Of a DNA stretch of 64,000 bases, positions 7,226 to 63,542 are shown piece after piece (position 1 is the stretch's first letter; every line of letters begins with the position of its first letter). Location of the stretch: assembly GCA_000991405.1 (NCBI GenBank), contig LBRL01000001.1, positions 456,466-520,465 of the forward strand, read 5' to 3'. The notes under the pieces are model-generated. The model saw only the letters and a list, made by a program, of their open reading frames with translations. It had not been told where the DNA came from and ran no database searches. The translations under genes were made by a program, and so were the position numbers. This DNA is from Candidatus Nomurabacteria bacterium GW2011_GWD2_36_14. Lineage in GTDB: Bacteria > Patescibacteriota > Minisyncoccia > Phycocordibacterales > UBA9973.

Positions 7226-7234
7226 TTATAATTG

Positions 7235-21325: not shown

Positions 21326-22711
21326 CTAGCAGTCTATCACTACTTGCTCGCCGGCTATTGGTGTATAAGCATTGACGCCAAGATTGTCTTTAAGTTTTTG
21401 AGCTAGAAACATTGCAGATTTCGGCTCTCCCATAAGTAAGAATATTTTCTTCACTGTATTTGCTGTGTCTGCTACGAACTCCACAAGATGGTCTGAGTCC
21501 TTGTGTCCAGAATAGCCACTGATCATTTCGACATGAGCTTTGACATGAATATCTTCGCCCATTATGTGTAGCTTCTTTGTACCATTTTGAATAGATCGTC
21601 CGAGAGTACCTACAGACTGGTAGCCAATAAGCAGTATGGTGTTGCTGGCATAAGGCAGATAATTCTTCTCATGATGTAGTATCCTTCCGCCATTACTCAT
21701 ACCGCTACCAGCCATGATAATCTTGGGGTCAGGAGCATGTAAGATGGCTTTCGATTCATCGGTTGTATCAGTCATTTTTAATCCAATGAAATTAAATATC
21801 TCATCGCCTCCTCTTATTATCTTTAAGGCTGTAGGATTAAAATACTTCTCGTACTTAGTATAAATAGCGGTAAGCTTTATAGCCAAAGGAGAGTCTAAGA
21901 ATATAGACATCTTGGGAATAAGATTCCACTCTACTAAAGTATTTATTTCATATAGTAATTCTTGTGTTCTCTCTAAAGAAAAAGTTGGTATTATAAGAGT
22001 GCCTTTCCTGTCATAGTTTTGCTTAATGATTTCCATTAATTTATTCTTCCTCTCATCACGGTCTTCATGATTCCTATCTCCGTAACAAGACTCCATAAAC
22101 AAATAATCCACATCTTTTATCTTCTCTGTATCGCGGAGTAAAGGTGATGGCGAATTCCCTAGGTCGCCAGTGAAGACAATCTTCCTATAATTATATATTA
22201 TCTCAAGCATTCCAGACCCAAGTATGTGTCCAGAATCTTTATAAGAAAATTGAAAGCCGTGATCCACGTTGAGCTTCTGTCCGTACTCTATAGTCTCCCA
22301 TAGACTTAGAGCCTTCTTGATATTCTCTGGGCTATATATCTCTGCCAAGTTATGATCCTCATCACGCGAAAGTAAGTGAGCTGTATCGGCTAGCATGACT
22401 TCTGTAATCTCTTTCGTGGGAATAGTAGAGATTATCCTACCGTTGAATCCTTCAGCTATAAGCTTGGGAATACGCCCTATATGATCGATATGTCCATGAG
22501 TGATGAAGAGGATATCTATAGTGGAAGCCTCATAAGGGAATTTGTCCCAGTTTAGATCCTCGGCAACCTTTTCGCCTTGGATAAGCCCACAGTCTACCAA
22601 GAACTTCTTGCCATTCCCCTCTATCAAAAAGTTGGCACCTGTGACAGTACCAGCACCAGAACAAAATGTAACTTTCAGTTTTGTATCATTATCCATCTTT
22701 TTATTATACAC
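21326..22711 (-). CDS. beta-CASP family MBL-fold ribonuclease (RNase J/CPSF-like)
   Basis: LVDCGLIQGE, HGHIDHIGRIP (HxHxDH), 461 aa with beta-CASP C-terminal half. Confidence 0.75.
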   Translation of the reverse strand: MYNKKMDNDTKLKVTFCSGAGTVTGANFLIEGNGKKFLVDCGLIQGEKVAEDLNWDKFPYEASTIDILFITHGHIDHIGRIPKLIAEGFNGRIISTIPTKEITEVMLADTAHLLSRDEDHNLAEIYSPENIKKALSLWETIEYGQKLNVDHGFQFSYKDSGHILGSGMLEIIYNYRKIVFTGDLGNSPSPLLRDTEKIKDVDYLFMESCYGDRNHEDRDERKNKLMEIIKQNYDRKGTLIIPTFSLERTQELLYEINTLVEWNLIPKMSIFLDSPLAIKLTAIYTKYEKYFNPTALKIIRGGDEIFNFIGLKMTDTTDESKAILHAPDPKIIMAGSGMSNGGRILHHEKNYLPYASNTILLIGYQSVGTLGRSIQNGTKKLHIMGEDIHVKAHVEMISGYSGHKDSDHLVEFVADTANTVKKIFLLMGEPKSAMFLAQKLKDNLGVNAYTPIAGEQVVIDC

Positions 22712-26827: not shown

Positions 26828-29563
26828 TTACAAATTCCTATACTTCTCCATTATCTCTTCTTCTACTTCTTCACGAAGGCGACCGTACTTGAGGTACGAT
26901 AACTCCTTGATCTTATCAACTATTTCTGTATTACCCTTTGGAGTTAGGCTCCAGTGGGAAGTCATAGAAAATGGCTTCGTCGGTGTACCATTTACCAGCA
27001 TTGAGACATATGAATTGAAATTATCCAACTTCATAATATCTGTTGCTGTGAAAGTTGGCTTGAATCTTGGCTCTATGAAGCTCGCATCCTCGGTACTGAT
27101 TCGATAGATAGCCATCGAACCCACGTTTCCGAAGACAGCATTCTTAATACCCTCTTCAAGTTGAGAAATATACTGGTGAGCCACAGTCAAAGACAAGCGG
27201 TACTTACGAGCTTCAGAAAGTATTGAGGCTATTGAGTCCGTCGTGACATTTTGGAATTCATCGATATATAGATAGAAGTCATTCATTTTCTGCCCATACA
27301 TATCTACACGAGAAAGCGCCGCCATCTGAATCTTGCCGACAAGCAGAAGTCCTATTAGATTGGCATTTACTTCTCCAAGTCTACCTTTAGAAAGATTGAT
27401 CAAAAGTATCTTTTTATTGTCCATGATCTCACGGAAGTTAAAGGCTGACTTCTCCTGAAGCACCACTGGACGCATGATGTCGTTCGATATAAAGTTGTCG
27501 AACTTGGAAGTAATGTATGGCACGAAGTTGGCAATGGACTGGTCCCCTGTTGTCTTCTCGGCATTGGCCCAGAATTCTTTGACGATTGGGTTCTTGCATT
27601 TAGCACAAAGTGCATCTCGGTATTCCTTGTTGCCAAGTATGCGCGTGATATCAAGTAAGGTTGCATGAGCTTCTGGATCATCCATGGCTAGGAAGGCACT
27701 GTTCTTGAAATATTGTTCGAACATCGGACCGCCTGAAGTCTTCATATCAAAAAGTTTATTGAAGATACTCATAAGCTCGTTGACCACGAAAGTCTTCTGT
27801 TCAGGATACTTGGGATCATACTCAAGCATGTTGAGCCCCATAGGACGAGCTGTATAAGCAGGGTCAAAGTATATGACGTCATCAATACGCTCCTTGGGTA
27901 CATAACTCAAGATGTCTTGGATATCACTACCATGCGGATCAATAAAGCAACATCCCTCCCCGTTCTTAATATCCTGCGCAATCATATTCTTCAATATTGT
28001 AGTCTTACCTGTACCAGTCTGTCCTATGACGTACATATGACGCATACGATCTTCGCGACTCATACGTATCTCTGTATCCTTACCTCGGTAGCTATTGATA
28101 CCCAAGAGTATCCCCTCACTGCCCATCTCAAGAGGAGCTGGGGCAAAGCCGGCCTTAGCCTGCTTGAGCTGTGAAGATACCACTCCATTGGGAAAGTGAA
28201 AGACCGTTGCAAGCTCTTTCAGATTGAGTGGCATCGAGTAATTATCAGAGAAGGTTCGATAAGAGAAATCATGAATGAGATTCATTAGAGACGAACCCGT
28301 AGGATGATTAAAATTGAAACCATTCCTGTCTGACTCGGTGAATTGATTGAAGGAGGACTCTATTTCAGAGAGTATTTGTTTGGATCTACTTTCGTCTTCT
28401 GCTGAAGCCATGATACGGATGTTGGTAGCCATGATAGTACTCTTGAGCTTCTCGCCGATGTACTCAACAGCCTTATCATTTACCTTTTTCTCTTCTTTCT
28501 TTTTAGAAGCTCCAAAAAGTAATTCGGACGCCAAATTCTTAAATTCTTTCGTGACTTGGCGAGTCATACTAGAGGCTGTACGAACCGACATCCCATTCTT
28601 CACATCAGAGTGAATGATGTGAAACTTTCTGATAATGTCTTCGTCTTCAGGACAAATAGAGAATTGAATTGCCGCTCCTTCGCCTTCCTTCTTTAACTTC
28701 GTAAAGACATTGAGAATGATATTTAAAGGATCGTGGTCGATAGCATCATAAAGCTTGATAGGATAGACTTCATGATGAGCGAGAGTAGCATAAGAGGCAC
28801 TGATAGATGCATGCTCAGAGAAAATATTGTAATCATCTGGCACTTCTGTAACTTTTGCATCCAAGTTCACTCCGAGAAGTTGCTTCTCGAAAAGTTCTGC
28901 CTTATTCGTAGGTACCGCAACGTAGAATACAAAGCTATCAGATCCTTCAGAAAGAGCAATCTCTAGGGTAAAGTGATTCCTATTATAATTCTCTCTACCT
29001 TCCCCCACTGAGTGCATACCTGCATAGAATTGCTCCATGGCAGAAAGTAATTCTTTCAAACCCTTCTTTTCTTTATCGTTATCAGCTGCATCTGGAAGAG
29101 TAATTTCGAAAAGTTTCATATCTAGAGATTTGAAGAGGGGTGTACCTTCTTTAAGTCCAGGAACTTTGTGAGTTGTATACAAGTATTGAACAAGGAAACG
29201 ATGGAAGTCGTCATCTAGGTGAGGATTGTTCATTTTGGCAATAACAGAAAGAACGTTGGAAATACCTTTGTCTAGTAGTATTGCAAGCATTTCTTCCATT
29301 TTGGCATCATGACCTTCTGGATGTAACCTCAAAACCAAACTTTCAACTTCTTTTTTACCCATGACTGCACTTTTATGCATTACATCTTCTGGCTCATACT
29401 TTCTGTATTCATGGATTACATCATGAGCAAGCATTTCCTTATTGGCCTCCTTGCCTTGTTCTACCAAGGCCTTCTCTTTCTCTGCGATATGCGCACGCAA
29501 AAATTCTAACTCCTCTTGTGGAGTCTTAAATTTAGGAGCATTGTTCAAATTAAATCCTTCCAT
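26828..29563 (-). CDS. FtsK/HerA-superfamily P-loop ATPase resembling type IV secretion coupling proteins (TraD/TraG/VirD4/TrwB-like), no N-terminal TM
   Basis: Walker A GQTGTGKTT, downstream FIDPHGSD (DPKG-like), Walker B YLYIDEF, C-terminal ARKYRLSLTVAHQYISQL; ~450-aa non-ATPase N-terminal region. Confidence 0.5.
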   Translation of the reverse strand: MEGFNLNNAPKFKTPQEELEFLRAHIAEKEKALVEQGKEANKEMLAHDVIHEYRKYEPEDVMHKSAVMGKKEVESLVLRLHPEGHDAKMEEMLAILLDKGISNVLSVIAKMNNPHLDDDFHRFLVQYLYTTHKVPGLKEGTPLFKSLDMKLFEITLPDAADNDKEKKGLKELLSAMEQFYAGMHSVGEGRENYNRNHFTLEIALSEGSDSFVFYVAVPTNKAELFEKQLLGVNLDAKVTEVPDDYNIFSEHASISASYATLAHHEVYPIKLYDAIDHDPLNIILNVFTKLKKEGEGAAIQFSICPEDEDIIRKFHIIHSDVKNGMSVRTASSMTRQVTKEFKNLASELLFGASKKKEEKKVNDKAVEYIGEKLKSTIMATNIRIMASAEDESRSKQILSEIESSFNQFTESDRNGFNFNHPTGSSLMNLIHDFSYRTFSDNYSMPLNLKELATVFHFPNGVVSSQLKQAKAGFAPAPLEMGSEGILLGINSYRGKDTEIRMSREDRMRHMYVIGQTGTGKTTILKNMIAQDIKNGEGCCFIDPHGSDIQDILSYVPKERIDDVIYFDPAYTARPMGLNMLEYDPKYPEQKTFVVNELMSIFNKLFDMKTSGGPMFEQYFKNSAFLAMDDPEAHATLLDITRILGNKEYRDALCAKCKNPIVKEFWANAEKTTGDQSIANFVPYITSKFDNFISNDIMRPVVLQEKSAFNFREIMDNKKILLINLSKGRLGEVNANLIGLLLVGKIQMAALSRVDMYGQKMNDFYLYIDEFQNVTTDSIASILSEARKYRLSLTVAHQYISQLEEGIKNAVFGNVGSMAIYRISTEDASFIEPRFKPTFTATDIMKLDNFNSYVSMLVNGTPTKPFSMTSHWSLTPKGNTEIVDKIKELSYLKYGRLREEVEEEIMEKYRNL

Positions 29564-48952: not shown

Positions 48953-51451
48953 CTAATTTTCTATATATATCGGATCTATATTCCCTACTTTAATTTCAGG
49001 GCATAGGAAAGGAAGAGAATCTATTCCCCCCTTACTACAAACTATACTATATCTTACTGTCTTTGCAGGCCAAAGAGTCTTGTTTCCTGATGAAGAACCC
49101 GTCCCTCCCAATAAATCTGTAGTAGAGCTACCAGCATACATCTCACAAGATGTAGCATCTGTCGAAGTCCAAGCTACATTCACAGAATCACCTGAATTTA
49201 TCTTAGTATTATTTGGAGTACAAGAAGTAACAACCGGCGAAGTTGATACTACTGGTGGAGTTGTAAATTGTTTAATTAATCCCCAACCATGACCCAAAGA
49301 ATTTGCGGCGAAAGCCCGAACATTATAAGTAGTGTTAGGTAATAATAAAGAATAGTTACTAGCAAAATTTCCCATACCTGCACCATCTATTTTTCTAAGC
49401 ATAAGGTTCTCAGGGTCATTAGGTGCTACATCCCAAGCTACTCCTCTTACAAGGACTGACAGTCCTCCACTATTTGTAACATTACCCCCCAGTATTGCAC
49501 TAGTTGAAGTTACACTTGTAGGAACTGAAGTTGTAACTGTTGGAACGGTATTGAATCCACTACATGCACTTGCTACTGTTCCAGACACTAAAGATGATGA
49601 AGCAGAATCCCCTGAAGCATTAGTGGCTTTAACTGTGTATGAATGAGTTGAATCAAGAGCAAGACCATCATCAGACCCACGACATGTACCATCTGAACAA
49701 TTATTGTAAGACGCTAGAGTAGAAGCCATTATAGGAGTTGCACTTCCATCTTTATAAACTTTATAATTTGTTGCACCTGTTGATGGTGTCCAGGCTAGGT
49801 TCAACCAAGAATTATTACAAGCACTGGGTGATACAGTAAGGTTTGTTGGGGTGGGTGGTGGGGTACAACCTGATACTAGTTTTGAAATTGTTGCAGTCCC
49901 AGAAGTTCCATTTGGTCCCATCGCTGTAAGATTATACGTATAAGTATTCCCTACAGTAAGTCCAGAATCTACAAAAGAATTTGCTGGGCCTGTATATCTA
50001 GGAGCACCAACACCAACTCTAAACAATTGATAAGTAGTAGCGGTTGGAACAAGATCCCATGATAAAGATAAGGACGTACTTCCACAAGCACTTTGAACTG
50101 CTTGAAAGTTTGTAGGAGTAGCAGTCTGATTAGATACAATCACATCAGTCCAAGAACTACAGTTATCATTTTCATTGGCAACTGATCCTTCGTTGATAGT
50201 TCCACTGTTTCCAGAAGAACTTTTGTCTGCACAAGCTCGTACTGAATATGTTCCTGCTGTTATAAATTTATGAGTAGTTTGAGCAACTGTAGCTGGACCT
50301 GTCCCACCGACAGCAAGTGCTGTCATAGAAGAAGAAGGCTTATCAGTTATAGTAGAAGTAGCAGGACAAATTCCTGCCTGAGAAGCAGTAGAACATATTT
50401 GGAAAAAATTGTTAAAACTTGCACCAGTTGAAGCTGTACCCTCATTTGAGATTGTAGAAGAGAATGTTGTGTCAACATTCAACATTGCCCAATTTGGAGT
50501 TGGAGCAGAAGCCTTAAGATTAGGATAAGGAGTTGCTAGTGTTTTGAAAGTTCCATTAGAAGATACTGATCCATTAGTAGAATAAGTGAGTCCTTTATCA
50601 TTCTCAGCTTTTCCACGGAAATAATAAGTAGTATTGGGAGTTAGTCCTGTAGCATCAAAGAAGAAAGTGCCCATGCCTGTGCCCGCTGAATAACAACTTG
50701 TAGAATTAAGTGCAAGTCCATAACAAATAGATCTGGAAACAGGAGGGTCATTGCCATCTGAAGTAACATTAGCAGATAGTCTTGCAGAAGTAGATGTAAT
50801 GTTAGTAGCTGGCTCTATAAGGAGTATAGAAGGAGGAAATGTACCTGCATTAAACGTTACAATACAAGTCTTACTTGAATCCATAGTTACTTGGCCATTA
50901 GCACAATTAGCTGACCAACTACTAAATGCATAACCTGAACCAGCAGACTGGGCAAGAGTAACTGAAGTTCCTGAAGGATATGATCCTGTACAATCAGCTC
51001 CACACGAGATAGCCCCAACAGTAGGAATATCAGATGTCACCGTCCCCGTCCCTACCTTAGTTATAGTGAGAGTATAATTAGTTGCTGCACCAAACGTTGC
51101 GGTACAATTTTTATTGGCATTATTATTGGCACTCATGGTAACAGTACCAAGTGACCCACAGTCTCCACCCCAGACTACTGTAGGTGAATTAGCTGTTATA
51201 GAAACTGCTCCTGTATTTAGAGGATATGTCTCGGTACAAGTAAGGGTTCCAGCTCCACAAACCTTACCAGTATCAAAAGTTATTATCCCAGTATTAGCCC
51301 CTGCCCCCAACTTTGTAACAGTAAGAATAGGATTTGGAGTCACGGTTACTGTTACCTTACTTCCTCCGTTTGTAGCACTAACAGAAGAAATACCTGTGAT
51401 GAAAAATGCAAGGAGAATAAATAAAAATATTTTTATGGTTTTCATATACAA
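48953..51451 (-). CDS. large secreted surface protein with InlB-B-repeat-like module and fibronectin type III-like domains; T/S/G/N-rich
   Basis: Signal peptide; TLTITKVGTGTVTSDIPTVGAISCGADCTGSYPSGTSVTLAQSA (InlB B-repeat-like); Fn3-like TNLTVSPSACNNSWLNLAWTPSTGATNYKVYKDG. Confidence 0.55.
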   Translation of the reverse strand: MYMKTIKIFLFILLAFFITGISSVSATNGGSKVTVTVTPNPILTVTKLGAGANTGIITFDTGKVCGAGTLTCTETYPLNTGAVSITANSPTVVWGGDCGSLGTVTMSANNNANKNCTATFGAATNYTLTITKVGTGTVTSDIPTVGAISCGADCTGSYPSGTSVTLAQSAGSGYAFSSWSANCANGQVTMDSSKTCIVTFNAGTFPPSILLIEPATNITSTSARLSANVTSDGNDPPVSRSICYGLALNSTSCYSAGTGMGTFFFDATGLTPNTTYYFRGKAENDKGLTYSTNGSVSSNGTFKTLATPYPNLKASAPTPNWAMLNVDTTFSSTISNEGTASTGASFNNFFQICSTASQAGICPATSTITDKPSSSMTALAVGGTGPATVAQTTHKFITAGTYSVRACADKSSSGNSGTINEGSVANENDNCSSWTDVIVSNQTATPTNFQAVQSACGSTSLSLSWDLVPTATTYQLFRVGVGAPRYTGPANSFVDSGLTVGNTYTYNLTAMGPNGTSGTATISKLVSGCTPPPTPTNLTVSPSACNNSWLNLAWTPSTGATNYKVYKDGSATPIMASTLASYNNCSDGTCRGSDDGLALDSTHSYTVKATNASGDSASSSLVSGTVASACSGFNTVPTVTTSVPTSVTSTSAILGGNVTNSGGLSVLVRGVAWDVAPNDPENLMLRKIDGAGMGNFASNYSLLLPNTTYNVRAFAANSLGHGWGLIKQFTTPPVVSTSPVVTSCTPNNTKINSGDSVNVAWTSTDATSCEMYAGSSTTDLLGGTGSSSGNKTLWPAKTVRYSIVCSKGGIDSLPFLCPEIKVGNIDPIYIEN

Positions 51452-52760: not shown

Positions 52761-54512
52761 ATGGAAAAAGAAAACAAAATCTGCCAAAATTGTAAAAAAG
52801 ACTTTACAATCGAATCAGAGGATTTTATATTTTACGATAAAATAAAAGTTCCAGTACCAACTTTTTGTCCAGAATGTAGATCTATTCGTCGATTATTATG
52901 GAGAAATGAACACACACTATATAGAAGAATATGTAATTTATGTCAAAAACAAATTATATCTATTTACTCACAAGAATACCCTGGGTTGGTCTACTGTAAC
53001 AAATGCTTGCATTCTGATAAATGGGATTCTAATAATCAAAAAGAATATGATTTTTCGATACCATTCTTTATCCAATTTAAAGAATTAATAAACTCCACAC
53101 CACTATTAGCATTAAATATTTTTAATTCTGAAAATTGTCAATACAATAATCATATGAGTAATTGTAAGGACTGTTATTTATGTTTTCGAGTTCATAATTC
53201 CAAGAATATGCTCTATACTTATCGCGCAAAACCATGTAACGATTGCACAGACTGCATGGGGGTATTTAATTCTAGTTGGCTTTATTCATGTATTGAGTGC
53301 ATAGATTCAAATAATTCTAAATATTTAGAATTTTGTAGTGGATGTATTGAATCTTTGTTTTTGTATGACTGCCGAAATTGTATGTCTTGCTATATGTGCT
53401 CAAATTTACGTAATAAACAATACTGCTTTATGAATGAGCAATTAACCAAAGAAGAATACCTAAAAAGAATAAGTGAAATTGATTTTGGGTCACGAAACAC
53501 TACAAACAAACTCTTTTTGAAATTTGAAAATATAAAAGCAAATGCGATAAGAAAATATGCGCTGATAACCAATTCAAGTAACGTTACAGGGGACAACATT
53601 AGAAATTCTGAAAACTGCTATCAATGCTTCGATGTTGCTGATATTAAAAATGGAGCATATTTACTTGAAGTATTACACTCATCTCGAGATTCATATGATG
53701 CAATCGGAGGTGGAATGAATGAGCTAGTGTATGAATTTGGTGGAGTCTCTTGTAATAATGCTAAGTTCTGTTTAGATGTCTCTGAGTCAAGAAACATTGA
53801 ATATTGCCAATACAGTGAAAATAATCATGATTTATTTGGTTGTGTAGGATTAAAACATAAAGAATACTGTATTTTAAACAAGCAATACACAAAAGAAGAA
53901 TACGAATTACTTCTCCCAAAAATAATTAATCATATGAATAATATGCCTTATATCTCAAAAGATAATGTTATATATAAATATGGTGAATTTTTCCCAGAAG
54001 AATTATCCCCATTTGCATACAATGAATCATATGCACAAAATTTTTTCCCTTTAACTAAGAAACAAGCATTCGATACAAAAACAGGTTGGCACGAACAAGA
54101 AAAAAGAAACTATCCATTAACAATTGACTCTTCCAATTTAGAAGATAATATTTCCAATGTTACTAAAAATATTTTGGAAGAAACAATTGGTTGCGATCAT
54201 AGAGGGGAATGTCAAGAAAACAATAGTGAATGTAAAGCAATCTGTATTTCTGCTTTTAAAATAACTCCTGAAGAACTTCAATTCTATAAAAAAATGAACA
54301 TACCATTGCCAACATTATGCCCTAATTGTAGACAACACAAAAGACTATTGCAAAAAAACCCCATAAAGCTATGGCACCGTCAGTGTATGTGCAGTACAAA
54401 ACACACTCATCATAAGGATGAACGCTGTGACATAAAATTCGAAACTATATATTCTCCAGATAAATCAGAAATAGTCTATTGTTCAAAATGTTATCAACAG
54501 GAAATATATTAA
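52761..54512 (+). CDS. large Cys-rich protein of unknown function (paralog B)
   Basis: Same N- and C-terminal Cys motifs and internal C-x2-C/NK-Y-ILNKQYTKEEY repeats as 31249-32946. Confidence 0.5.
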   Translation: MEKENKICQNCKKDFTIESEDFIFYDKIKVPVPTFCPECRSIRRLLWRNEHTLYRRICNLCQKQIISIYSQEYPGLVYCNKCLHSDKWDSNNQKEYDFSIPFFIQFKELINSTPLLALNIFNSENCQYNNHMSNCKDCYLCFRVHNSKNMLYTYRAKPCNDCTDCMGVFNSSWLYSCIECIDSNNSKYLEFCSGCIESLFLYDCRNCMSCYMCSNLRNKQYCFMNEQLTKEEYLKRISEIDFGSRNTTNKLFLKFENIKANAIRKYALITNSSNVTGDNIRNSENCYQCFDVADIKNGAYLLEVLHSSRDSYDAIGGGMNELVYEFGGVSCNNAKFCLDVSESRNIEYCQYSENNHDLFGCVGLKHKEYCILNKQYTKEEYELLLPKIINHMNNMPYISKDNVIYKYGEFFPEELSPFAYNESYAQNFFPLTKKQAFDTKTGWHEQEKRNYPLTIDSSNLEDNISNVTKNILEETIGCDHRGECQENNSECKAICISAFKITPEELQFYKKMNIPLPTLCPNCRQHKRLLQKNPIKLWHRQCMCSTKHTHHKDERCDIKFETIYSPDKSEIVYCSKCYQQEIY

Positions 54513-54522
54513 AAACTTATCA

Positions 54523-55488
54523 TTAAGATAACGCTACATAGTTCAGCCAAGATAAGTATCTCTCGTCTTCTCCATGGACTGCATGCTGATAGGCTAATTT
54601 AATTTCTTTTACTATTGGACCTTCTTCTTTATTATTTAAAATATATTCATTGATTTTTGATATTGCATTTACTTCAGATGCAGTACCAGTAAAAAATGCT
54701 TCAGTAAATGTGGGTATTTCATCTATGGAAATATTTTTTTCAATTACTTCATAACCAAGATCGTTTGCGATACGCATTATACTTGCACGAGTAAAACCAG
54801 AAAGAATAGCATTCTCATTTGGGGTGTATAAAACTTTATCTTTCACAAAGAAAATATTTTCACCAGCACCCTCAGCAATATACCCATTTTCATCAAGAAA
54901 TAATGCCTTTTCAAAACCATCTCTTTTAGCATCCAACAGGGCCAAAATAGAATTGGCATAATTACCTGATATTTTTGCAGTCATATCGCTCAAATTAGAA
55001 CTCATTCTAATATATGGCGATACTTTGACAGTAACTGTTTCTCTGGGAAGATATTTCCCCCATTGCCATGTTGCTATAGCAAAATGAATCGGGGTATCAT
55101 CAGTCGGCAAAAGATCCATTTTTTCTCCATAAAATATAATTGGTCGTATGTAGCATTCATTATAATTATTTTGTTTTATTAAATTAATTATCGCAATCAT
55201 TATATCGTTTTCTGAATATGGAATGGTCATTCCCATTATTTTGGCAGAATGAAATAAATGATGTATATGATCTTTCAGACGAAAAACTGCGGGCCCTTTT
55301 GGAGTAAAATAACAACGAATCCCCTCAAAAACACCAGAACCATAGAATAGGCTGTGTGTTAACAATGGAATTCGAGCATCAGCGAGATCCATTACTTTTC
55401 CATCAAACCATATTTTTTTAGACAATGTTTCTGCTTTCATATATTTATTAATTAAAAATAAAATATTAGATATTAACCTGATAACCAT
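54523..55488 (-). CDS. class IV PLP aminotransferase (branched-chain / D-amino-acid aminotransferase family)
   Basis: 321 aa; fold-type IV pattern incl. EGAGENIFFVKD and catalytic-Lys region; 23-nt overlap with upstream PheRS-like gene. Confidence 0.65.
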   Translation of the reverse strand: MVIRLISNILFLINKYMKAETLSKKIWFDGKVMDLADARIPLLTHSLFYGSGVFEGIRCYFTPKGPAVFRLKDHIHHLFHSAKIMGMTIPYSENDIMIAIINLIKQNNYNECYIRPIIFYGEKMDLLPTDDTPIHFAIATWQWGKYLPRETVTVKVSPYIRMSSNLSDMTAKISGNYANSILALLDAKRDGFEKALFLDENGYIAEGAGENIFFVKDKVLYTPNENAILSGFTRASIMRIANDLGYEVIEKNISIDEIPTFTEAFFTGTASEVNAISKINEYILNNKEEGPIVKEIKLAYQHAVHGEDERYLSWLNYVALS

Positions 55489-56725
55489 CAGTATTACCTT
55501 GATGAAGCTTGGGATATGCTAGAGAATAAAGTTCCGCTGATTCTTTCTTTGTCAGTGTTTTATCAGGGTGTCTAAGAATAATACGAACAAGCACATTATC
55601 TTGACCTTCTTTTGCTCCAAGTCTTTCCTTTGCAATTGGTTGCAACTTATCATAAGAAGTTCTTTCTAGTATCTTAACCTCTTCTAATAAATCCGCCTTT
55701 TCTCCAAAGACATTTTTTATAGCTTCACATATATCTTCCTCGGAGTCATTTTTATTAACACAATATGACATATCACGTGCTATTGCTGGCTGATTAGAGA
55801 CATTTTCAAACTTTCTCATATTAGTCATTTGTTTGATAACACGAGGATCTGTAGAACGTATTAGTCTAATGTCTGGTAAATTTTTCCGAGCCATAATCAA
55901 TCTCTCAACGCCCATACCAAGAGCAAGTCCAGAATATTGATCTGGATCAATACCAGAATTCCTTAATACGTCTGGATGAGCAAGACCTGCTTCTAAAACT
56001 TCTATTTCTTTCCCATCAACTTTTGCATAAACTTCAATGCCGTCAATAGTATAAGGGTGCTTTGCTTCATAAACAATCATTTCAGCTTCTGGACAAGCTG
56101 CCTCAAAAACAGTATTAGCTAAATCTAATAAATCTTTTCTCGTAACTTTTCCATATTTTTTACTATCTTGAAGCGTCCAAACATCAATTTGATGAAAAAC
56201 ATCCAAATGTTTAGGGTCAATAACATCACGCCTATACACTAAACCTGGAAGAACAAAGGTTGAACGATCTATATTTTTTTGTAATTTTTCAAATGTTGAT
56301 GGAATTAAAGCAGACGTATGCGTTCTAAGAACATGATTACCATCTACATATCTTGTATAAGTTGAGGAACGCCCAGGATTTCCAGGAGAGAATAACAGGC
56401 TATCAAAATTATCTTTTGCATCAACTTTAGGATCTGATCTCACAACATGAATATCTGGAAAGTGATACTTATTTAACTTTTCAATAACTTGATCATATAT
56501 TCTACCAATAATATTTCTTTCTTGGCCTTCTTCTGTTGGTAAAGTTAAATCTTTAATAGAAAGAAGTTTTTCGATCGTTTCAGGAGAGGAAATTTCAAAC
56601 TTGAGTTGCATAGGTAGCTCTGGATTTTCTTTTGAAATTTCTGTCTTCGCTCTTTCAAGTGCGCTAATATAAGGAGTTTTTTCAGACTTATCTTGATATT
56701 TTTCCATATTTATATAATACCACAC
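55466..56725 (-). CDS. PheRS alpha-like class II aaRS catalytic domain + C-terminal FDX-ACB-like domain (monomeric mitochondrial-type architecture), paralog 1
   Basis: Motif 1 region NFDSLLFSPGNPGRS, motif 2 LRTHTSALIP...GLVYRRD...FHQID, motif 3 GLALGMGVERLIMA; C-terminal FENVSNQPAIARDMSYCV resembles FDX-ACB; no pheT adjacent. Confidence 0.6.
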   Translation of the reverse strand: MWYYINMEKYQDKSEKTPYISALERAKTEISKENPELPMQLKFEISSPETIEKLLSIKDLTLPTEEGQERNIIGRIYDQVIEKLNKYHFPDIHVVRSDPKVDAKDNFDSLLFSPGNPGRSSTYTRYVDGNHVLRTHTSALIPSTFEKLQKNIDRSTFVLPGLVYRRDVIDPKHLDVFHQIDVWTLQDSKKYGKVTRKDLLDLANTVFEAACPEAEMIVYEAKHPYTIDGIEVYAKVDGKEIEVLEAGLAHPDVLRNSGIDPDQYSGLALGMGVERLIMARKNLPDIRLIRSTDPRVIKQMTNMRKFENVSNQPAIARDMSYCVNKNDSEEDICEAIKNVFGEKADLLEEVKILERTSYDKLQPIAKERLGAKEGQDNVLVRIILRHPDKTLTKKESAELYSLAYPKLHQGNTDGYQVNI

Positions 56726-56774
56726 ATATTCATTGTTGCAAATACTTCTATTATAGATTATATTTATAAATATT

Positions 56775-57833
56775 ATGGATAAAAAAATTTATAAAGAAGT
56801 TTTAAGTGAAGTAGAGAAAATAAATTCTCCATTTGTTTCTAAGCAAGGAGAAAATATATACATAATAACAGGAGATCTTTTTAATAAAGTTATAAAATTT
56901 TTTCCACCCCATCTCAAAGATAAAACAGCATCAGTTCCACTTTCAAGTTTGTATTCTGTTTTTTTTCATAAACAAACTAACGGATTAGTTGTAGTCAACA
57001 AGGGCGCTTCCCTACTATCGAGAAGTGTTCTGAGTGGAAGATATATGGTTATACGTCATATAGGATTTGTAGTATATCTCCCTAACCAAGGAATAGAAAT
57101 TATTGATGTTGGGGTTGCAGGTAATTTACATAAAAGTAAATTTACCATCTTGCGACCAGAATCAGCATGCTCACCAGGCTTTATGTTTGGATCACAACGT
57201 TGTAATTGTTACGATCAATGGACATTGTCAAAAGAATTAGCACACGAATATAATTTAATTACAAAGCCGAACCTATCTTCAGTTGAACTTGAAAAATTTC
57301 TAACTTCTGAAATGTTTTTAGATGAGAATAATAATCTAACATCAAAATCAGATGGGCAAGCATTTATAATGGCACACTTTACATCACAAAACGGAATGGG
57401 TAGTGGTGTCATAGAAAATAGTTTCGTTCCTGACTTAACCGCAAATGCTTTTATTCGACATAGAGGTGAATATTCTGCTGAACAAATTCATAAAGTATCA
57501 GTTGCGGGAGGATTTGAATCACTAGGAATAAAACCCGACCCAAGAAAATTAAATAGCGGACTTTCTTTTAGATTAATATCTACTGTTCTTGATTATCTTA
57601 ATGCCCCTAAAAAAATTGTTGCCTTAACAAATAATACTGATAAAATAAATGCCTTAAATAATTCTGGTTATGAAGTTCAAAGACTTCAATTGGTTGCTAG
57701 GGCTGGAGATGGATGCGAAATAGAAATAGATGATCGACGAAACGAATTCGGACATTTAATCCCTGAAAACATATGTGTCTCTTGGGAAGAAGAGCTTGTT
57801 AGGCTAAAGAGTGAAATAAATTCATTATTATAA
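56775..57833 (+). CDS. GTP cyclohydrolase II (RibA)-like enzyme with ~120-aa N-terminal extension
   Basis: Zinc motif C-x10-C-x-C (ACSPGFMFGSQRCNCYDQW); C-terminal IVALTNNTDKINALNNSGYEV like RibA. Confidence 0.55.
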   Translation: MDKKIYKEVLSEVEKINSPFVSKQGENIYIITGDLFNKVIKFFPPHLKDKTASVPLSSLYSVFFHKQTNGLVVVNKGASLLSRSVLSGRYMVIRHIGFVVYLPNQGIEIIDVGVAGNLHKSKFTILRPESACSPGFMFGSQRCNCYDQWTLSKELAHEYNLITKPNLSSVELEKFLTSEMFLDENNNLTSKSDGQAFIMAHFTSQNGMGSGVIENSFVPDLTANAFIRHRGEYSAEQIHKVSVAGGFESLGIKPDPRKLNSGLSFRLISTVLDYLNAPKKIVALTNNTDKINALNNSGYEVQRLQLVARAGDGCEIEIDDRRNEFGHLIPENICVSWEEELVRLKSEINSLL

Positions 57834-57844
57834 TAATAAATTAT

Positions 57845-59233
57845 ATGAAAAAAAAAGTTAATATTGCAATTATTGGTGGTTCGGGGTACTGGTCCGACAG
57901 AAATCATAATAAAAATATACTGGAATTAAAAGATGAACTTACAATTCAACTTACCGCAATTGTTGATCCTATCGACCCTAGAACTGTCAATATTAATAAT
58001 AATACAATAAAACTTTGTACTATCGATAATACCGTATGGATAAACCCTAAAGATTTTAAAAATACAGATGAAATTATTAAAAATCTTAAAGAAAAACTAG
58101 ATGTTAATCTTGTAATTATCGCATCAAACCCTTGCGCACATTTTGAATATGGTATTAGTTGCTTGAAATATGGAATAAATGTCATATGTGATAAACCAAT
58201 AATTAGCAACTATAATGCCTCAACAAGTATAGCTGCCGCTTCCCATATCCGAGAACAATATAATGAACTTCTTGAAGCTTATTATAGAGCTAGAAGACAA
58301 TATCCGAATTTAATGTTCCATTCGATTTTGAGAAGACGATCACTTGAGTCATTTACAAAAGTGGCTAACGAATTAAATAAGGTATACAAAAAAACAAAAG
58401 CCGGAATAAACAATATGACTATGTTGATTAATGGTGGAGTATGTAAACTACCAGCAGAGTTAAGTAACCCAGGGGCTCACGGATATCTTGATGGAGTAGG
58501 ATCACTATCTCATTCCGCATATCACTACATTGATGCTATAGCTTGGTTTGTTTCTATGGCACCAGGAAAAACAGTTGAAATTGTTCCAAAACTTAATTAC
58601 ATAACTAGGATTAATGACTATTTAGATTCTGAAACTTATACAAGTATTGTAAGTATTATAAATGCTAGTCAAGACTCTTTATTAAAACCAAAGCTTTCAA
58701 AAGAAACATTGGGGTGTGAACTTAATGTAGGGTTTACATTTATTATGAACAATAAAGAAAATATTCAGGTTGGTATAATATCTCTTCTTTTCAATCATAT
58801 AAGTTTTACCACCAGAATTAATAATTATGATAAATCAGTTCGAGAGCCAGGAGACCACAAAGGTGGAGGAAGAATGTCTCAGTCTTTTATTGATGTTCAC
58901 CAAGAAGGTTTACAAAACTGGCAGATAATGAAAAACAATGTGGCATTAGGTGATAACACAATTTTACTCCAAGGAAGAAGACACCCATCCATAGAGGGAG
59001 TTGGTTTTGAATGTAAAAATTACGAAAATGCATACGATACTGGTATCAGTATGAAGGAATTATTAGCACATGCAATTAAATACATAGCGGAAGAAAAAGA
59101 TTTAATTGGTCATTCTGTAATAAGAGAACTCCCAGAAGAAAGACTAGCTATTGATATTTACACCTCTTGTTATGAATTAATTGCCAGAGAATACAATAGC
59201 GAGCCTCTTCAAGTCCCAGGAATAAAAATATAA
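57845..59233 (+). CDS. Gfo/Idh/MocA-family NAD(P)-dependent oxidoreductase
   Basis: N-terminal Rossmann VNIAIIGGSGYWS...; VICDKPI motif; 462 aa. Confidence 0.55.
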   Translation: MKKKVNIAIIGGSGYWSDRNHNKNILELKDELTIQLTAIVDPIDPRTVNINNNTIKLCTIDNTVWINPKDFKNTDEIIKNLKEKLDVNLVIIASNPCAHFEYGISCLKYGINVICDKPIISNYNASTSIAAASHIREQYNELLEAYYRARRQYPNLMFHSILRRRSLESFTKVANELNKVYKKTKAGINNMTMLINGGVCKLPAELSNPGAHGYLDGVGSLSHSAYHYIDAIAWFVSMAPGKTVEIVPKLNYITRINDYLDSETYTSIVSIINASQDSLLKPKLSKETLGCELNVGFTFIMNNKENIQVGIISLLFNHISFTTRINNYDKSVREPGDHKGGGRMSQSFIDVHQEGLQNWQIMKNNVALGDNTILLQGRRHPSIEGVGFECKNYENAYDTGISMKELLAHAIKYIAEEKDLIGHSVIRELPEERLAIDIYTSCYELIAREYNSEPLQVPGIKI

Positions 59234-59273
59234 TCAATGAATAAATAGGTAATTTAAATATATTAATTTAAAC

Positions 59274-60245
59274 ATGAAAACTTCATTGAATAAAGAAAAA
59301 AAATATCAAAAAGAAATTCTAAAATTTAAGGGAGAAAAGTGGAATTTTATAAAGGAGCGTATGTTAACAAATAGTAAAATATATAAATCTATTGATGGTT
59401 TAAAGTACTTACATATTGGTAATAATAAGAATATTAAGAAAGAAGCTTTGTGTATAAAAAAAATAAAAAGATTAGGATTCCCTATTCCTGAATTACTTGA
59501 ATATGATAAAACAAAAAAACAGAGCTATTATATTGAAAAATCTGCTGGGGATAAATCTTTTGGAGATAAATTTTATAAAGAATACTTCTCGCAGTCAAAA
59601 ATAAATTCTAATACACTGGAATCCATGTGTGATGTAGTATGTCTTTTTTTGAGGTCACAAATTAGATCTTCTGATTATTTTAACTCAAAATATGACTTGA
59701 GAAAAAATATAATGCTAAAAAATATATTAGTGGAAAATCCTGATTTAAATCATATAAAAGTAGAATTATGTGTTTCAAAAATAGAAAATAGGTTATATTC
59801 ACTACCAACTACTTTTTCCCACGGAGATTTAACACCGCGTAATATATTTGAAAATGGAATTATAGATATTGAATTTAATTCAATTATGCCTGTCGGTTAT
59901 GACGTACTTACCCTACCGATAATGGAACGTTTTTGGGGCTTCAAAAAAAACAAAAATGAAACATATGAAAATTTTTATTTAAGCGAAAAACAAATCTCTC
60001 ATTATTTTAAAAGAATAGAAGCTGAAGCTAAAATAAATGGAATTAAAGATTTTTTAACTTTTAGAAATGACTTCATTTTGCTTAAGGCTATATGGTCACT
60101 TGCCAATGAAAAATATTCCGCAAAAAAATCTGGAGATACATCTAAATTAAATTTTCGTAAAAAAATTTTAATTTATTGTATAGACAAATATTTAAACAAT
60201 GAAATGATTGAAACAAAAAAATTTAAAACATTTATTACTATATAA
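59274..60245 (+). CDS. aminoglycoside phosphotransferase/choline-kinase-like small-molecule kinase (APH fold)
   Basis: Brenner motif HGDLTPRNIF, downstream DIEF. Confidence 0.6.
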   Translation: MKTSLNKEKKYQKEILKFKGEKWNFIKERMLTNSKIYKSIDGLKYLHIGNNKNIKKEALCIKKIKRLGFPIPELLEYDKTKKQSYYIEKSAGDKSFGDKFYKEYFSQSKINSNTLESMCDVVCLFLRSQIRSSDYFNSKYDLRKNIMLKNILVENPDLNHIKVELCVSKIENRLYSLPTTFSHGDLTPRNIFENGIIDIEFNSIMPVGYDVLTLPIMERFWGFKKNKNETYENFYLSEKQISHYFKRIEAEAKINGIKDFLTFRNDFILLKAIWSLANEKYSAKKSGDTSKLNFRKKILIYCIDKYLNNEMIETKKFKTFITI

Positions 60246-60354
60246 GTATTATTAGCCTAGCTAATATAATTATTTCTTTAATTAAGAGATAGTGCTATCA
60301 TGAAACTATTGTTAATTGGTAAAATATTATTAAGAAAAAATAAATAATCTCCAT

Positions 60355-61971
60355 ATGATTAAAATATCAAAAAAAATAAAAAACCTGTTTTATGACCCAG
60401 AAACAGATTCTATTGCTTCTTTATTGCGAGATATCAAAAAAACACATTTAAAATTACTAAAAAAAACTGATTTAGTAAAAGGAACATTAATAAAAAGCTC
60501 AATAAATGACAAAGACTTGATTGATAATTTTAAAATCCCGGAAAAAAGTCTAGATAGTAAATATATATCATCAACCATTTCTAATTTGTTTGATGGTGTT
60601 TCTAGATGGCATTTTCCTAATACAATGTATAATGCTGCCCCTCCCCCACTACTTCCAACTGTAATTACTAAAATGATCACTTCTTTATATAATCCCAATT
60701 TAGCACTCTATTCAGCATCTGGTAAAAGTCTTTTAACTGAACAAAAAGTAATAAAAGCAATCGCAGAATATGTTGGATGGAACCGAGAAAGTGCAGGGGG
60801 TGTCTTTACATGGGGAGGAAAAGCAACAACTATGTATGGAATTAAGTTTGGAATAAAAAATTGTTCTCCAAATTCTGCCGCACAAGGTATAAAAGAAGAT
60901 ATAATTGTATTGTCTACTAAAGTAGGGCATCCTTCTCATATATCTGATTCTGAGTGGCTAGGGATAGGCTCGTCAAATGTCGTCAGGTTGGGGGTAGATG
61001 AAAATTCTCAAGTTAATCTTAATGAAATGGAGGAAATAATTAGAAAAGCAGTAAAAGAAAAAAAGAAAATTGCCACTATTATTATTTCAGGAGGAACAAC
61101 AAACGATATGGTAGTTGATACCATTGATGATGTAGTTAATTTAAGAGATAAAATTACAAAAGAACTTGAATTAGAATATAAACCTCATATTCACGTAGAT
61201 ACAGTCGTAGCATTTCCCTGGATATTCTTTAAAGACTATGAATTTGAAAAAAATCCTCTAAATATAGAAAAAAGAGCATTAGCCAGAATTTCAAAAATAA
61301 AAACGAACCTAAAAAATCTTCATATGGCTGATTCTTTTGGTGTTGATTTTCATAAAATGGGTTTCTGTCCTTATATATCTAGTGTTTTTATGATAAAAGA
61401 TAAAATGGCTCTATCTAACGTTAAAAATGCTTATAACTGGCCATTCTTATATTCAATGGAAAATTCAAGACCAGCTGATGGCCCAAACTCTGCCTTTATG
61501 GCACTTAGTGTACTGGGGGTAGAGGGTTTCCAAATTTTAATAGGACATCTCACTGAGATTGCAGTACATTTACAAGATGAAATAAATGCAACAGAGGATT
61601 TTGAAGTTATAAATAAAACAGGGCTCGGTACTGCTGTTATGTTTATACCACGCATCCCTAAACACATAACAATTAGTACTCCAGAAGAAGAGGTAATTAT
61701 GCGTAATTCGTATACTATGGCTTTTATAGAAAAGCTGGCAGACTTAGGAAATCCTTTTTATATTGATAAAATACCGAGTGATTCAACTGGGGGAAATTCA
61801 TTCCCTTATACATCTTTAAAAGCATATATAATGTCACCTTATTCGAGCAAAAAATCAAATATTGAATTTGTATCATTTATGATTAAAATAAAAAAAGAAA
61901 TTGATCAAAATTTTAATTTCAAAGATAAATCATTTTATGTAGAAGAAGAACATCCCTTAAAAAACAACTAA
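60355..61971 (+). CDS. PLP-dependent amino-acid decarboxylase (group II, fold type I)
   Basis: SGGTTNDMV, DSFGVDFHKMGFCPY (PLP-Lys in HK), 538 aa. Confidence 0.65.
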   Translation: MIKISKKIKNLFYDPETDSIASLLRDIKKTHLKLLKKTDLVKGTLIKSSINDKDLIDNFKIPEKSLDSKYISSTISNLFDGVSRWHFPNTMYNAAPPPLLPTVITKMITSLYNPNLALYSASGKSLLTEQKVIKAIAEYVGWNRESAGGVFTWGGKATTMYGIKFGIKNCSPNSAAQGIKEDIIVLSTKVGHPSHISDSEWLGIGSSNVVRLGVDENSQVNLNEMEEIIRKAVKEKKKIATIIISGGTTNDMVVDTIDDVVNLRDKITKELELEYKPHIHVDTVVAFPWIFFKDYEFEKNPLNIEKRALARISKIKTNLKNLHMADSFGVDFHKMGFCPYISSVFMIKDKMALSNVKNAYNWPFLYSMENSRPADGPNSAFMALSVLGVEGFQILIGHLTEIAVHLQDEINATEDFEVINKTGLGTAVMFIPRIPKHITISTPEEEVIMRNSYTMAFIEKLADLGNPFYIDKIPSDSTGGNSFPYTSLKAYIMSPYSSKKSNIEFVSFMIKIKKEIDQNFNFKDKSFYVEEEHPLKNN

Positions 61972-62052
61972 AATATGTAGATATAATAAATGGGGCTACA
62001 GACATTGTCCATAGCCCCATTGAGTGATTCAATTAATTAATAAATAGGTAAA

Positions 62053-63165
62053 TTACATATACCCTCTATCTCCTTCGTTGAGTTTTGGGTAAAGACGTTG
62101 CATCCATTCATTAACGACAGCTTTGGGTAAAGAACTTTCTAACGAACGGAAAGTTAGTACAACAACTACATTTTTTTGGTGTGGCTGAATACCAAGGTTA
62201 ATCCTGGCTTTTTCTGGAAGTTGATCATAAGAAGTTTCAGAATATTCTATATTCTCTATAAACACAGAATCTGAGCCTAATTCATCCTTAATTTCTTCAC
62301 AAATATCTTCTTCGGTTTTTTCAACAGAAGCAGAATATGAAAGTACTCTCTTGGTAGCGGGCTGATTAGAAACAACAACAAATTTTTCAAGATTTGTCAT
62401 CTGGCCCTTTATCCTAATATCCTCTGACCTTAAAACACGAATATCATCAATCCCTTTTAGAATCATGACGAGCCGATCCAATCCCATACCAAGAGCAAGC
62501 CCAGAGTATTCTTCAGGATCAAGTCCAGCGTTTTTCAGAATAGTCGGGTGAACTTCTCCACATTCAAGAAGTTCTAGCCAATTACCATTCACAAAAATTT
62601 CAATTTCAAGCCCATTTATCGTATAGGGGTGTTCAACTTCATTCGCCCGATATTCATATCCTGGAATAACATTATCCAAAATAGTCTCAACAAAACGAAT
62701 TAAATCTGACCTATCGAAAAGTGGCAATCCTCGTTTGATTCGCCAAACATCCATTTGATGAGGTTCTCCGCAATGATTTTTATCTACGACATCACGACGA
62801 TAACACATCCCTGGAACTAATAATATTGTGTCAGTAATATTATTAGAAGATTTTTTGAGCCATCTTGGAATAGCACATGAGGTGTGAGTACGTAAAATAG
62901 TATCTTCTGTCACATACCTTGTATACCGAGAAGATCTACCTGCATTGTCCAAAGGGAAAAGAAGATCATCAAAATTTTCTTTCAATGAGACTTCAGGACC
63001 AGAACGAACCTCCTCAATAGTTGTTTCGGGGTAAGTTTTTTCAAAAGCCTGTTTTACATTATCAATAATGATATTGATAGCGTGAACCCCATTATCAGGG
63101 TCAGTAAGATCTAAAATTGCCAAAGACGATGCTAGTCGTTCTGGCGACATAATTTCTTGTTTCAT
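62053..63165 (-). CDS. PheRS alpha-like class II aaRS catalytic domain + FDX-ACB-like C-terminus, paralog 2
   Basis: NFDDLLFPLDNAGRS, LRTHTSCAIP, GMCYRRD, PHQMDVW, GLALGMGLDRLVMI; C-terminal VVVSNQPATKRVLSYSA. Confidence 0.6.
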   Translation of the reverse strand: MKQEIMSPERLASSLAILDLTDPDNGVHAINIIIDNVKQAFEKTYPETTIEEVRSGPEVSLKENFDDLLFPLDNAGRSSRYTRYVTEDTILRTHTSCAIPRWLKKSSNNITDTILLVPGMCYRRDVVDKNHCGEPHQMDVWRIKRGLPLFDRSDLIRFVETILDNVIPGYEYRANEVEHPYTINGLEIEIFVNGNWLELLECGEVHPTILKNAGLDPEEYSGLALGMGLDRLVMILKGIDDIRVLRSEDIRIKGQMTNLEKFVVVSNQPATKRVLSYSASVEKTEEDICEEIKDELGSDSVFIENIEYSETSYDQLPEKARINLGIQPHQKNVVVVLTFRSLESSLPKAVVNEWMQRLYPKLNEGDRGYM

Positions 63166-63542
63166 GATTATCCTCCTTTTACATTAGTGTTATGTTATTG
63201 TTTTTTCTTACTAAATTCAATAAAACCTATTACGTAATACCTATTATTTATTAATATTTAAAGAACAATTATCTATATGAGTTCTATAGAACTTAAAAAA
63301 ATAATACATCAAAACATGTTGTATGTCAAAACAGCCGTATAGGCTCAATGACTTGAACGCAACCTAAAAAATCTACTTCGGGAAAGCAAATTCTCAAATC
63401 TTTTGTAGAATATAAAATGTATTGGAGGGGAGAAAAAAGTAAATAAAACGAATTCGCTCTGAAAAACAAAACACCATTCCAACCGAAGTTAGAATGGCAT
63501 TATATCGCATGCATTATAAATGCAATGTGTATTAGAGAAAGA

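Follow-up and report, generated by a model that had tools for sequence, protein, structure and literature searches.

Bacterial phenylalanyl-tRNA synthetase (PheRS) is a heterotetramer of PheS and PheT, in which PheS begins with a coiled-coil (PF02912), the C-terminal ferredoxin-fold domain belongs to the beta subunit, and an editing site is present. The mitochondrial enzyme (FARS2) instead joins a PheRS-alpha module and a ferredoxin-fold domain in one chain and has no editing domain. A 2010 review regards it as the only class II synthetase that is monomeric, and as a chimera in which the alpha catalytic module is combined with the B8 domain of beta (PMC3275996). SepRS and PylRS share the class IIc catalytic-fold subclass, differ in their tRNA-binding domains, and are precedents for PheRS relatives with new amino-acid specificity. 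A further relative, the NCBIfam equivalog NF051887 (“PheS-related mystery ligase SrmL”), is catalogued by name and uncharacterised. Here we describe two minus-strand genes, A and B, in a 64-kb stretch (the window) of Candidatus Nomurabacteria bacterium GW2011_GWD2_36_14 (contig LBRL01000001.1, positions 456,466 to 520,465), a member of the Patescibacteria (candidate phyla radiation, CPR). Judged from their sequences, A and B are two old paralogs within the already named SrmL family, and not equivalogs of PheS or mitochondrial PheRS. What is added to the catalogued family is two Patescibacteria orthogroups as members. The genes and their domains are as follows.

55466..56707, minus strand: gene A, A-type SrmL, 413 aa from the ATG at 56707 (open reading frame, NF051887 and AlphaFold2 model)
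55826..56524, minus strand: class IIc catalytic module of A (Pfam tRNA-synt_2d, E 3.3e-36, residues 68-300 of the 419-aa open reading frame)
55523..55798, minus strand: ferredoxin-fold (FDX-ACB-like) C-terminal domain of A, with a family-specific inserted helix (Pfam FDX-ACB 28.0 bits, and model)
62053..63165, minus strand: gene B, B-type SrmL, 370 aa (open reading frame, NF051887 and AlphaFold2 model)
62401..63084, minus strand: class IIc catalytic module of B (Pfam tRNA-synt_2d, E 3.2e-40, residues 28-255)
62056..62373, minus strand: divergent ferredoxin-fold C-terminal domain of B, with RV rather than RD in strand 1 (model; no Pfam hit)

On NF051887 (cutoff 300 bits) A scores 371.8 and B 388.3 bits, with alignments covering positions 9-349 and 3-349 of the 349-position model. 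Both fall far under the PheRS cutoffs: A and B reach 112.9 and 120.2 bits on TIGR00468 (bacterial PheS, cutoff 237.45), where a true Patescibacteria PheS reaches 262.1, and 137.6 and 134.5 bits on TIGR00469 (mitochondrial PheRS, cutoff 258.35). They also score far below the archaeal PheS equivalog, and the other class IIc equivalogs give 21 bits (sepS) and 15-16 bits (PylS). A sequence-only reading of this DNA had called the two genes mitochondrial-type, monomeric PheRS-alpha-like paralogs; the single-chain architecture stands, while the family is SrmL. Actinomycete relatives already carry this name in NCBI and UniRef: a search for homologs of a Nocardia member gave hundreds of matches, in Nocardia, Streptomyces, Kitasatospora, Amycolatopsis and others.

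In SrmL chains, which are ~360-420 aa long, an FDX-ACB-type domain follows the PheS-type catalytic module. A and B, which are 43% identical over their full length, conform to this plan, and they carry all of the motifs that do not vary when CPR, actinomycete, plasmid and phage members are aligned (GRSS.YTRY, HPYT, HQ.D.W and SGLA.G.G..R). They differ from the curated family in score (372-388 bits, against 516-533 for the actinomycete members tested), in an extra conserved N-terminal segment of ~35 aa in the A-type, and in the RV that replaces RD in the tRNA-binding domain of the B-type. The motifs of A are LRTHTS, GLVYRRD, VFHQIDVW, HPYT, GLALGMGVERL and VSNQPAIARDMSY; those of B are LRTHTS, GMCYRRD, EPHQMDVW, HPYT, GLALGMGLDRL and VSNQPATKRVLSY. 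The motifs quoted earlier are thus present in both genes, with two corrections, as B has GMCYRRD rather than G.VYRRD and A has RDMSY rather than RDLSY. The change in the FHQ(L/M)EG box noted at the same time is borne out (FHQIDVW in A, PHQMDVW in B), and the family as a whole has HQxDxW.

The proposed profile searches give a clear match to tRNA-synt_2d in both proteins (E-values above) and, for FDX-ACB (PF03147, gathering score 31.1), 28.0 bits in A and no match at E<=0.01 in B; the SrmL homologs P0362 and P0363 exceed the threshold, at 43.5 and 36.1 bits. Pfam finds no PF02912 coiled-coil in A or B. The catalytic module is homologous to that of bacterial PheS (TIGR00468), at 26-31% identity (97 bits against E. 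coli PheS), and a residue-by-residue alignment is possible through motifs 1-3. Unlike the bacterial pair, A and B lack the coiled-coil, a partner pheT and the editing site, and the C-terminal domain is fused in cis rather than placed in the beta subunit.

AlphaFold2 models built from family alignments have a mean predicted local distance difference test (pLDDT) of 95.0 and a predicted template modelling score (pTM) of 0.91 for A, and 94.6 and 0.90 for B. For both proteins the best match in the PDB found by Foldseek is the closed human mitochondrial PheRS (3CMQ), with both domains covered (B: E 1e-28, TM 0.78, root-mean-square deviation 2.7 A over 380 columns; A: E 3e-27, TM 0.68-0.73). The open, tRNA-bound form of that enzyme (3TUP) fits both less well, and bacterial PheS chains cover the catalytic module only. 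The modelled C-terminal domain of A has the order beta-alpha-beta-(alpha)-beta-alpha and aligns with the anticodon-binding domain of mitochondrial PheRS; in B the predicted elements are E271-280, H285-302, E303-312, H318-324, E330-339 and H348-362. The FDX-ACB-like fold suspected at the C terminus is therefore supported by the predicted structures and by whole-chain superposition on FARS2, as is the single-chain combination of a class IIc catalytic module with a ferredoxin-fold domain usual for PheT. In these models, A and B share the two-domain, single-chain architecture of the mitochondrial type. SrmL and mitochondrial PheRS also have in common a conserved DIR..R....Q linker, with identity of ~24-26%; the mitochondrial FPFT, FHQLEA and GWAFGLG become HPYT, HQxDxW and SGLALGMG in SrmL.

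Pocket and C-terminal residues were compared by sequence alignment. The motif 2 Arg (Y-R-R-D), the motif 3 Arg (G-L-A-x-G-x-G-x-x-R), the LR(T/S)H.. and H-Q-x-D elements and the Ala equivalent to E. coli Ala294 are all invariant in alignments of 14, 37 and 60 sequences, and this invariance of catalytic residues spans CPR, actinomycete, plasmid and phage SrmL. In PheRS, such as the Thermus enzyme, the LR(T/S)H.. and H-Q-x-D elements hold the amino group of the substrate. Because the residues for ATP and the adenylate do not vary, the alignments argue for SrmL being an active adenylate-forming enzyme. The residues that select Phe differ across the whole family, with HPY invariantly in place of FPF and HQxD in place of FHQxE. 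Most SrmL clades, including B, have Pro for the aromatic residue in motif 2 (PHQ rather than FHQ). In the C-terminal domain, the strand-1 Asp (RD) is kept in A and in phage and actinomycete SrmL and is Val in the core B-type, and an invariant Tyr is a possible stacking residue.

A scan of species-representative genomes, which depends on exact patterns and is not a census, yielded 70 SrmL loci, and an exhaustive search of the representatives of 1.84 billion proteins gave 429 SrmL clusters at E<=1e-30. The latter search turned up no informative domain fusions, only stand-alone proteins of 360-420 aa; in the longer entries Pfam shows no added domain other than a single collagen-like insert. A-type proteins (68-80% identical to A) occur in metagenome-assembled genomes (MAGs) labelled Nomurabacteria, Paceibacterota, Zambryskiibacteria, WWE3 and Gracilibacteria; B-type proteins, also in Patescibacteria, are 53-80% identical to B. 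Ninety-three positions are conserved and identical in the two types and 26 are conserved but type-specific, so both types are under selection and have diverged at function-relevant places, among them the motif 2 loop, RD/RV and the pocket rim (E-A-G-L-A-H-P in A, E-C-G-E-V-H-P in B). By these residues A is the more PheRS-like (FHQ, RD) and B the more derived (PHQ, RV, a Glu in the pocket rim), and the divergence makes redundancy of the two unlikely. Two family members occur at the same locus in the window and in L004, L005, L009, L012 and L015.

Outside the Patescibacteria, SrmL stands alone in the actinomycetes Nocardia, Streptomyces and Amycolatopsis, where its neighbours are unrelated and no conserved partner gene was found. 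Plasmid copies occur in Glutamicibacter, beside cmx, and in Azotobacter, among insertion sequence elements. The Glutamicibacter plasmid gene is full length (L089:6983-8101) and is found 481 nt downstream of a gene for Cmx/CmrA chloramphenicol efflux. In Corynebacterium diphtheriae, a truncated plasmid copy (L092:5001-5627) lies between erm(X) and tet(65). The proximity to cmx, erm(X) and tet(65) may reflect hitch-hiking in resistance regions or antibiotic selection. Six huge-phage contigs of 145-635 kb carry SrmL, with 370-443 bits on NF051887; huge phages can encode up to 15 aminoacyl-tRNA synthetases and up to 67 tRNAs (PMC7162821). SrmL resembles the auxiliary synthetases of plasmids and phages in being a single, self-sufficient gene that occurs on plasmids and in translation islands; it has been linked to no function that concerns inhibitors, stress or phages.

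The strongest functional clue for SrmL is its linkage to tRNA-Phe. In one phage (L093) the gene (7959-9089) lies within a 17-tRNA array, with tRNA-Phe(GAA) on both sides (7714-7788 and 9240-9314), and in another (L097) tRNA-Phe is 124 nt upstream. In the SrmL island of a third (L094), a LysRS-like gene comes after three tRNA-Lys genes, and a bona fide SerRS after several genes for tRNA-Ser; synthetase genes in these phages therefore tend to adjoin genes for their cognate tRNAs. A Patescibacteria locus (L019) has tRNA-Phe 71 nt downstream of SrmL. Across 79 non-redundant loci, tRNA-Phe makes up 4 of the 8 tRNAs within 255 nt of SrmL and 3 of the 86 farther off (Fisher p = 7e-4; p = 0.004 in a conservative binomial test on independent lineages). 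This points to tRNA-Phe as the acceptor; it is a clue that does not identify the amino acid. The sequence-only reading had offered a monomeric PheRS with a repurposed paralog, or two non-canonical amino-acid ligases. Both are possible. The phage linkage to tRNA-Phe speaks for a role on that tRNA like the one of PheRS, and the conserved positions at which the A- and B-types differ are consistent with one of the paralogs being more derived.

So, what do A and B do? On balance, we lean towards the two being catalytically active, editing-less accessory synthetases that act on tRNA-Phe and have diverged from one another in function. Each enzyme would activate an aromatic, Phe-like amino acid with ATP and, once its C-terminal domain has swung open on a hinge as that of mitochondrial PheRS does, would transfer it to tRNA-Phe. 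SrmL would thus be a compact accessory synthetase that works alongside the canonical heterotetrameric PheST and has no housekeeping duty.

Several observations weigh against this proposal. In PheRS, Tt F258 and F260 pack edge-to-face on the substrate ring (PMC3275996), and SrmL invariantly carries His and Tyr at the corresponding positions (His179 and Tyr181 in B). The cytosolic PheRS of eukaryotes likewise shows a polar residue and a Tyr there, but makes up for it with an aromatic residue at the position of Tt V286; in SrmL this compensating aromatic is absent, the residue being V, A or I. The Glu of FHQxEG has become Asp. According to complexes of the M. tuberculosis and Thermus enzymes, G34 is read in the PheRS ferredoxin-fold domain by a conserved Asp, a stacking aromatic residue and a C-terminal Arg (Tt R780, Mt R830) (PMC8136816); this Arg has no counterpart in SrmL, and strand 3 is preceded by an inserted helix of 8-11 residues. 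No tRNA lies near most SrmL loci, and the phages L093 and L097 are related, which leaves just two or three independent tRNA-Phe linkages. The pheS and pheT genes were seen in other Patescibacteria, and the window is a small part of this organism's own genome; three PheRS-type enzymes all making Phe-tRNA-Phe would also be surprising in a small Patescibacteria genome. Literature searches on SrmL, PheRS-like paralogs and monomeric bacterial PheRS returned nothing relevant among the papers covered.

Other features that bear on A, B and their surroundings are listed here.

54523..55440, minus strand: branched-chain (class IV) aminotransferase (NF005146 353.6 bits; the ENA call is 305 aa)
56714..56742, minus strand: promoter-like site just 5' of the A start, within the 67-nt divergent spacer (consensus scan only)
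56775..61971, plus strand: four-gene cassette between A and B (Pfam and NCBIfam)
61989..62021, minus strand: terminator-like hairpin with a 15-bp stem, 32 nt past the stop codon of B, within the 81 nt that separate B from the convergent decarboxylase gene
63301..63329, minus strand: promoter-like site 5' of B, TTGACA-17-TATTAT, 11/12 (consensus scan only)

The open frame of A extends past the ATG at 56707 to a GTG at 56725 (55466-56725, 419 codons). Given the N-terminal block common to A-type orthologs (M-T/N-S-L-E-K-A-K-I-E-I-P-K-E-N-P-D-L-P-M-Q-L-K-F-E-V-S) and the ENA call for the identical locus, which starts at 56707, the true product is most likely the 413-aa protein encoded by 55466-56707. 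Both open reading frames reported earlier, on the minus strand, are sound; what changes is the length of A, then given as 419 aa from the GTG. Met39 as the start of A is ruled out by an alignment of A-type N termini. Two ENA contigs that share this gene order encode a protein identical to B. With a promoter-like site of its own and a terminator-like hairpin, B looks monocistronic. An Rfam search of the regions 5' of A, of B and of three actinomycete SrmL genes found neither T-boxes nor other elements. The aminotransferase gene is 25 nt downstream of A on the same strand and is probably co-transcribed with it; no homolog is present at other SrmL loci, so the linkage is not conserved.

The strongest competitor to an accessory PheRS-like role is that A and B are ligases for another substrate pair, a reading we consider possible but somewhat unlikely. 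They would attach a non-Phe or non-proteinogenic amino acid to tRNA-Phe, to another tRNA or to a non-tRNA acceptor, would feed the adjoining small-molecule cassettes, and would add a new class IIc specificity to Phe, Sep and Pyl. The family-invariant substitutions among the ring- and alpha-amino-binding residues (HPY for FPF, D for E) speak for such a role, as does the altered anticodon-binding domain, and so do the neighbouring genes. The cassette in the window comprises a weak GTP-cyclohydrolase-II-like gene, a GFO/IDH/MocA oxidoreductase, a kinase-like protein without a family match and a group II pyridoxal phosphate (PLP) decarboxylase. Searches of PDB sequences with the kinase-like and GTP-cyclohydrolase-II-like proteins gave nothing useful, the PADLOC defence-system models matched neither A, B nor the cassette proteins, and a functional tie of the cassette to SrmL is uncertain. 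The group II PLP decarboxylase adjoins A-type SrmL at 5 further loci, in three arrangements including that of the window, accompanied by the kinase-like gene at 2 of the 5 and by the GFO oxidoreductase at 2-3.

B-type SrmL has a different set of neighbours. At 8 loci (L001-L004 and L008-L011; for example L008:11219-12667 and downstream) it is convergent to a conserved operon whose genes specify a LysRS-like paralog (with scores below the lysS cutoffs), two dCTP-deaminase-like proteins, an S-adenosylmethionine (SAM) methyltransferase, an ornithine/diaminopimelate-decarboxylase-like protein and an S66 LD-carboxypeptidase. The methyltransferase, decarboxylase-like and S66 genes resemble the set of MccD, the N-terminal part of MccE, and MccF in microcin C clusters. 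Radical SAM/SPASM, GNAT or amidohydrolase genes are present at other B-type loci. Pairs of PheRS-family genes also flank variable cassettes: A and B enclose four genes in the window (55466-63165), B and A enclose a radical SAM/SPASM gene in L005, and the LysRS-like operon lies between two B-type copies in L009 and between a B-type gene and a C-type relative (described below) in L004. Set against all this, the associations involve a minority of loci (6 of ~39 A-type for the decarboxylase and 8 of ~19 B-type for the operon), and the genes are often convergent and so not co-transcribed. In actinomycetes, plasmids and phages SrmL stands alone, and whatever it needs must therefore be universally available. 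The phage copies sit in translation islands, and no domain fusion hints at another acceptor. As they concern a minority of loci and are not needed where SrmL stands alone, we treat the neighbours as a lead for a different substrate and leave them out of the mechanism.

A bolder form of this idea, which we regard as unlikely, is that SrmL is a fourth functional branch of class IIc with a non-Phe amino acid; a second, related reading is that the single-chain plan was not a mitochondrial invention. The invariant His/Tyr pocket would admit a non-Phe amino acid, with tRNA-Phe as a scaffold or with a non-tRNA acceptor, and A would differ from B in specificity, with both serving the variable cassettes that they flank.

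Could A, or A and B together, be the housekeeping PheRS of a Patescibacteria lineage that has lost PheST, as in mitochondria? No pheS or pheT is present anywhere in the 64-kb window, which confirms the earlier remark that neither gene is followed by pheT. A-type SrmL also sits between housekeeping genes (gyrB, thrS) at several Nomurabacteria-type loci, its sequences are strongly conserved, and the tRNA-Phe linkage would suit such a role. Yet 64 kb is a small fraction of the genome, and the lack of an adjacent pheT does not imply a lineage without pheST, as canonical pheS-pheT operons, with PF02912, the partner pheT and the full PheT domain set, occur in Patescibacteria (L087, a 922-kb contig, and L088). 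Moreover, canonical pheS and SrmL share a contig in two cases. In the first (L015/L084) the two are convergent, and the PheS scores 262.1 bits on TIGR00468 against the cutoff of 237; in the second (L064, a Nomurabacteria MAG) a partial canonical pheS is 9.5 kb from SrmL. A search with a canonical Patescibacteria PheS gave at least as many matches as the candidate cap allows; when the longest contigs of these matches were compared by length with the SrmL contigs, the L015 contig (64,621 bp) was the one that agreed. Actinomycetes, as is generally known, possess pheST, and SrmL is additional there. The scores of A and B, far under both PheRS equivalog cutoffs, also disfavour replacement, and we judge it very unlikely. 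Given the canonical pheS and pheST genes in Patescibacteria and the stand-alone, plasmid and phage copies of SrmL, the family is probably accessory rather than housekeeping. The canonical PheS of L084 (10001-11032) keeps its N-terminal domain and has no adjacent pheT; its gene ends an operon that encodes a nucleoside triphosphate (NTP) transferase, a PfkB kinase, a methyltransferase, a NUDIX protein and a B12-binding radical SAM enzyme.

That A and B are non-catalytic, HisZ-like paralogs with a regulatory or RNA-binding role and no remaining synthetase chemistry is hardly credible: the Pro that replaces the motif 2 aromatic in most SrmL clades, including B, would fit, but CPR, actinomycete, plasmid and phage members all keep the motif 2 and 3 Arg, the HTS/HQ.D amino-group binders and the Gly-rich floor unchanged, and a dead paralog is not expected to keep its catalytic residues in this way.

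The window has further features of note. A long-arm (class II) tRNA with anticodon ACU (3137-3224, plus strand) lies beside tRNA-Ser(GCU) (2954-3041, minus strand) and is kept in a second Patescibacteria genome (L048:12817-12902); an A34 tRNA in a split AGN codon box is unusual for bacteria. There is also a tRNA-Ile with anticodon UAU (7234-7308, minus strand), a less common way of reading AUA than the lysidine-modified CAU tRNA. A 583-aa cysteine-rich protein with many CxxC pairs (52761-54512, plus strand) has no match in Pfam, NCBIfam or PADLOC. A repeat protein of 832 aa, rich in Ser, Thr, Gly and Asn and with a signal-like segment at its N terminus (48953-51451, minus strand), is probably a surface protein. 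The best NCBIfam match of a beta-CASP/metallo-beta-lactamase ribonuclease (21326-22711, minus strand) is type VII CRISPR Cas14, at 367 bits, far below the cutoff of 800. A 911-aa protein (26828-29563, minus strand) contains a TraD/VirD4-like coupling-protein segment.

The C-type gene of locus L004 (17952-19094, minus strand, 380 aa) encodes a single-chain PheRS of Patescibacteria that is far closer to FARS2 than SrmL is. It aligns with human mitochondrial PheRS over both domains at 191.6 bits, against 135 for E. coli PheS, and scores 236.9 bits on TIGR00469, where the cutoff is 258. Phe-pocket and anticodon-reading residues are retained (FPYT, FHQIDG, GWAFGFG, RDIS, LDEY and a C-terminal ILR). 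About 42 close relatives occur in metagenomes (L098-L139), two of them with tRNA-Phe 50 nt downstream. In a neighbour-joining tree, which covers the catalytic module only (189 columns, few taxa) and is indicative only, SrmL and the C-type group together with 100% bootstrap, human mitochondrial PheRS joins them at 50%, and canonical PheS falls outside; the A-type branches first within SrmL. The single-chain PheRS plan, as represented by SrmL and the C-type, may not have originated in mitochondria and may already have circulated in bacteria and huge phages.

If A and B are editing-less auxiliary PheRS enzymes, they bear on translation fidelity and on the takeover of translation by phages, and tolerance to PheRS inhibitors or Phe analogues would be possible. 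If their amino-acid specificity differs, they represent a new synthetase activity, and SrmL, being compact (1.1 kb), would also be a candidate for orthogonal-translation engineering. The tRNA-Phe linkage in huge-phage islands provides the first testable functional hypothesis for NCBI's “mystery” family. A widespread bacterial, plasmid and phage family with the mitochondrial-type plan means that this architecture exists outside organelles, and SrmL offers a concrete route to studying where mitochondrial PheRS came from. Should the single-chain plan indeed already have circulated in bacteria and huge phages, a mobile-element origin of mitochondrial PheRS becomes testable.

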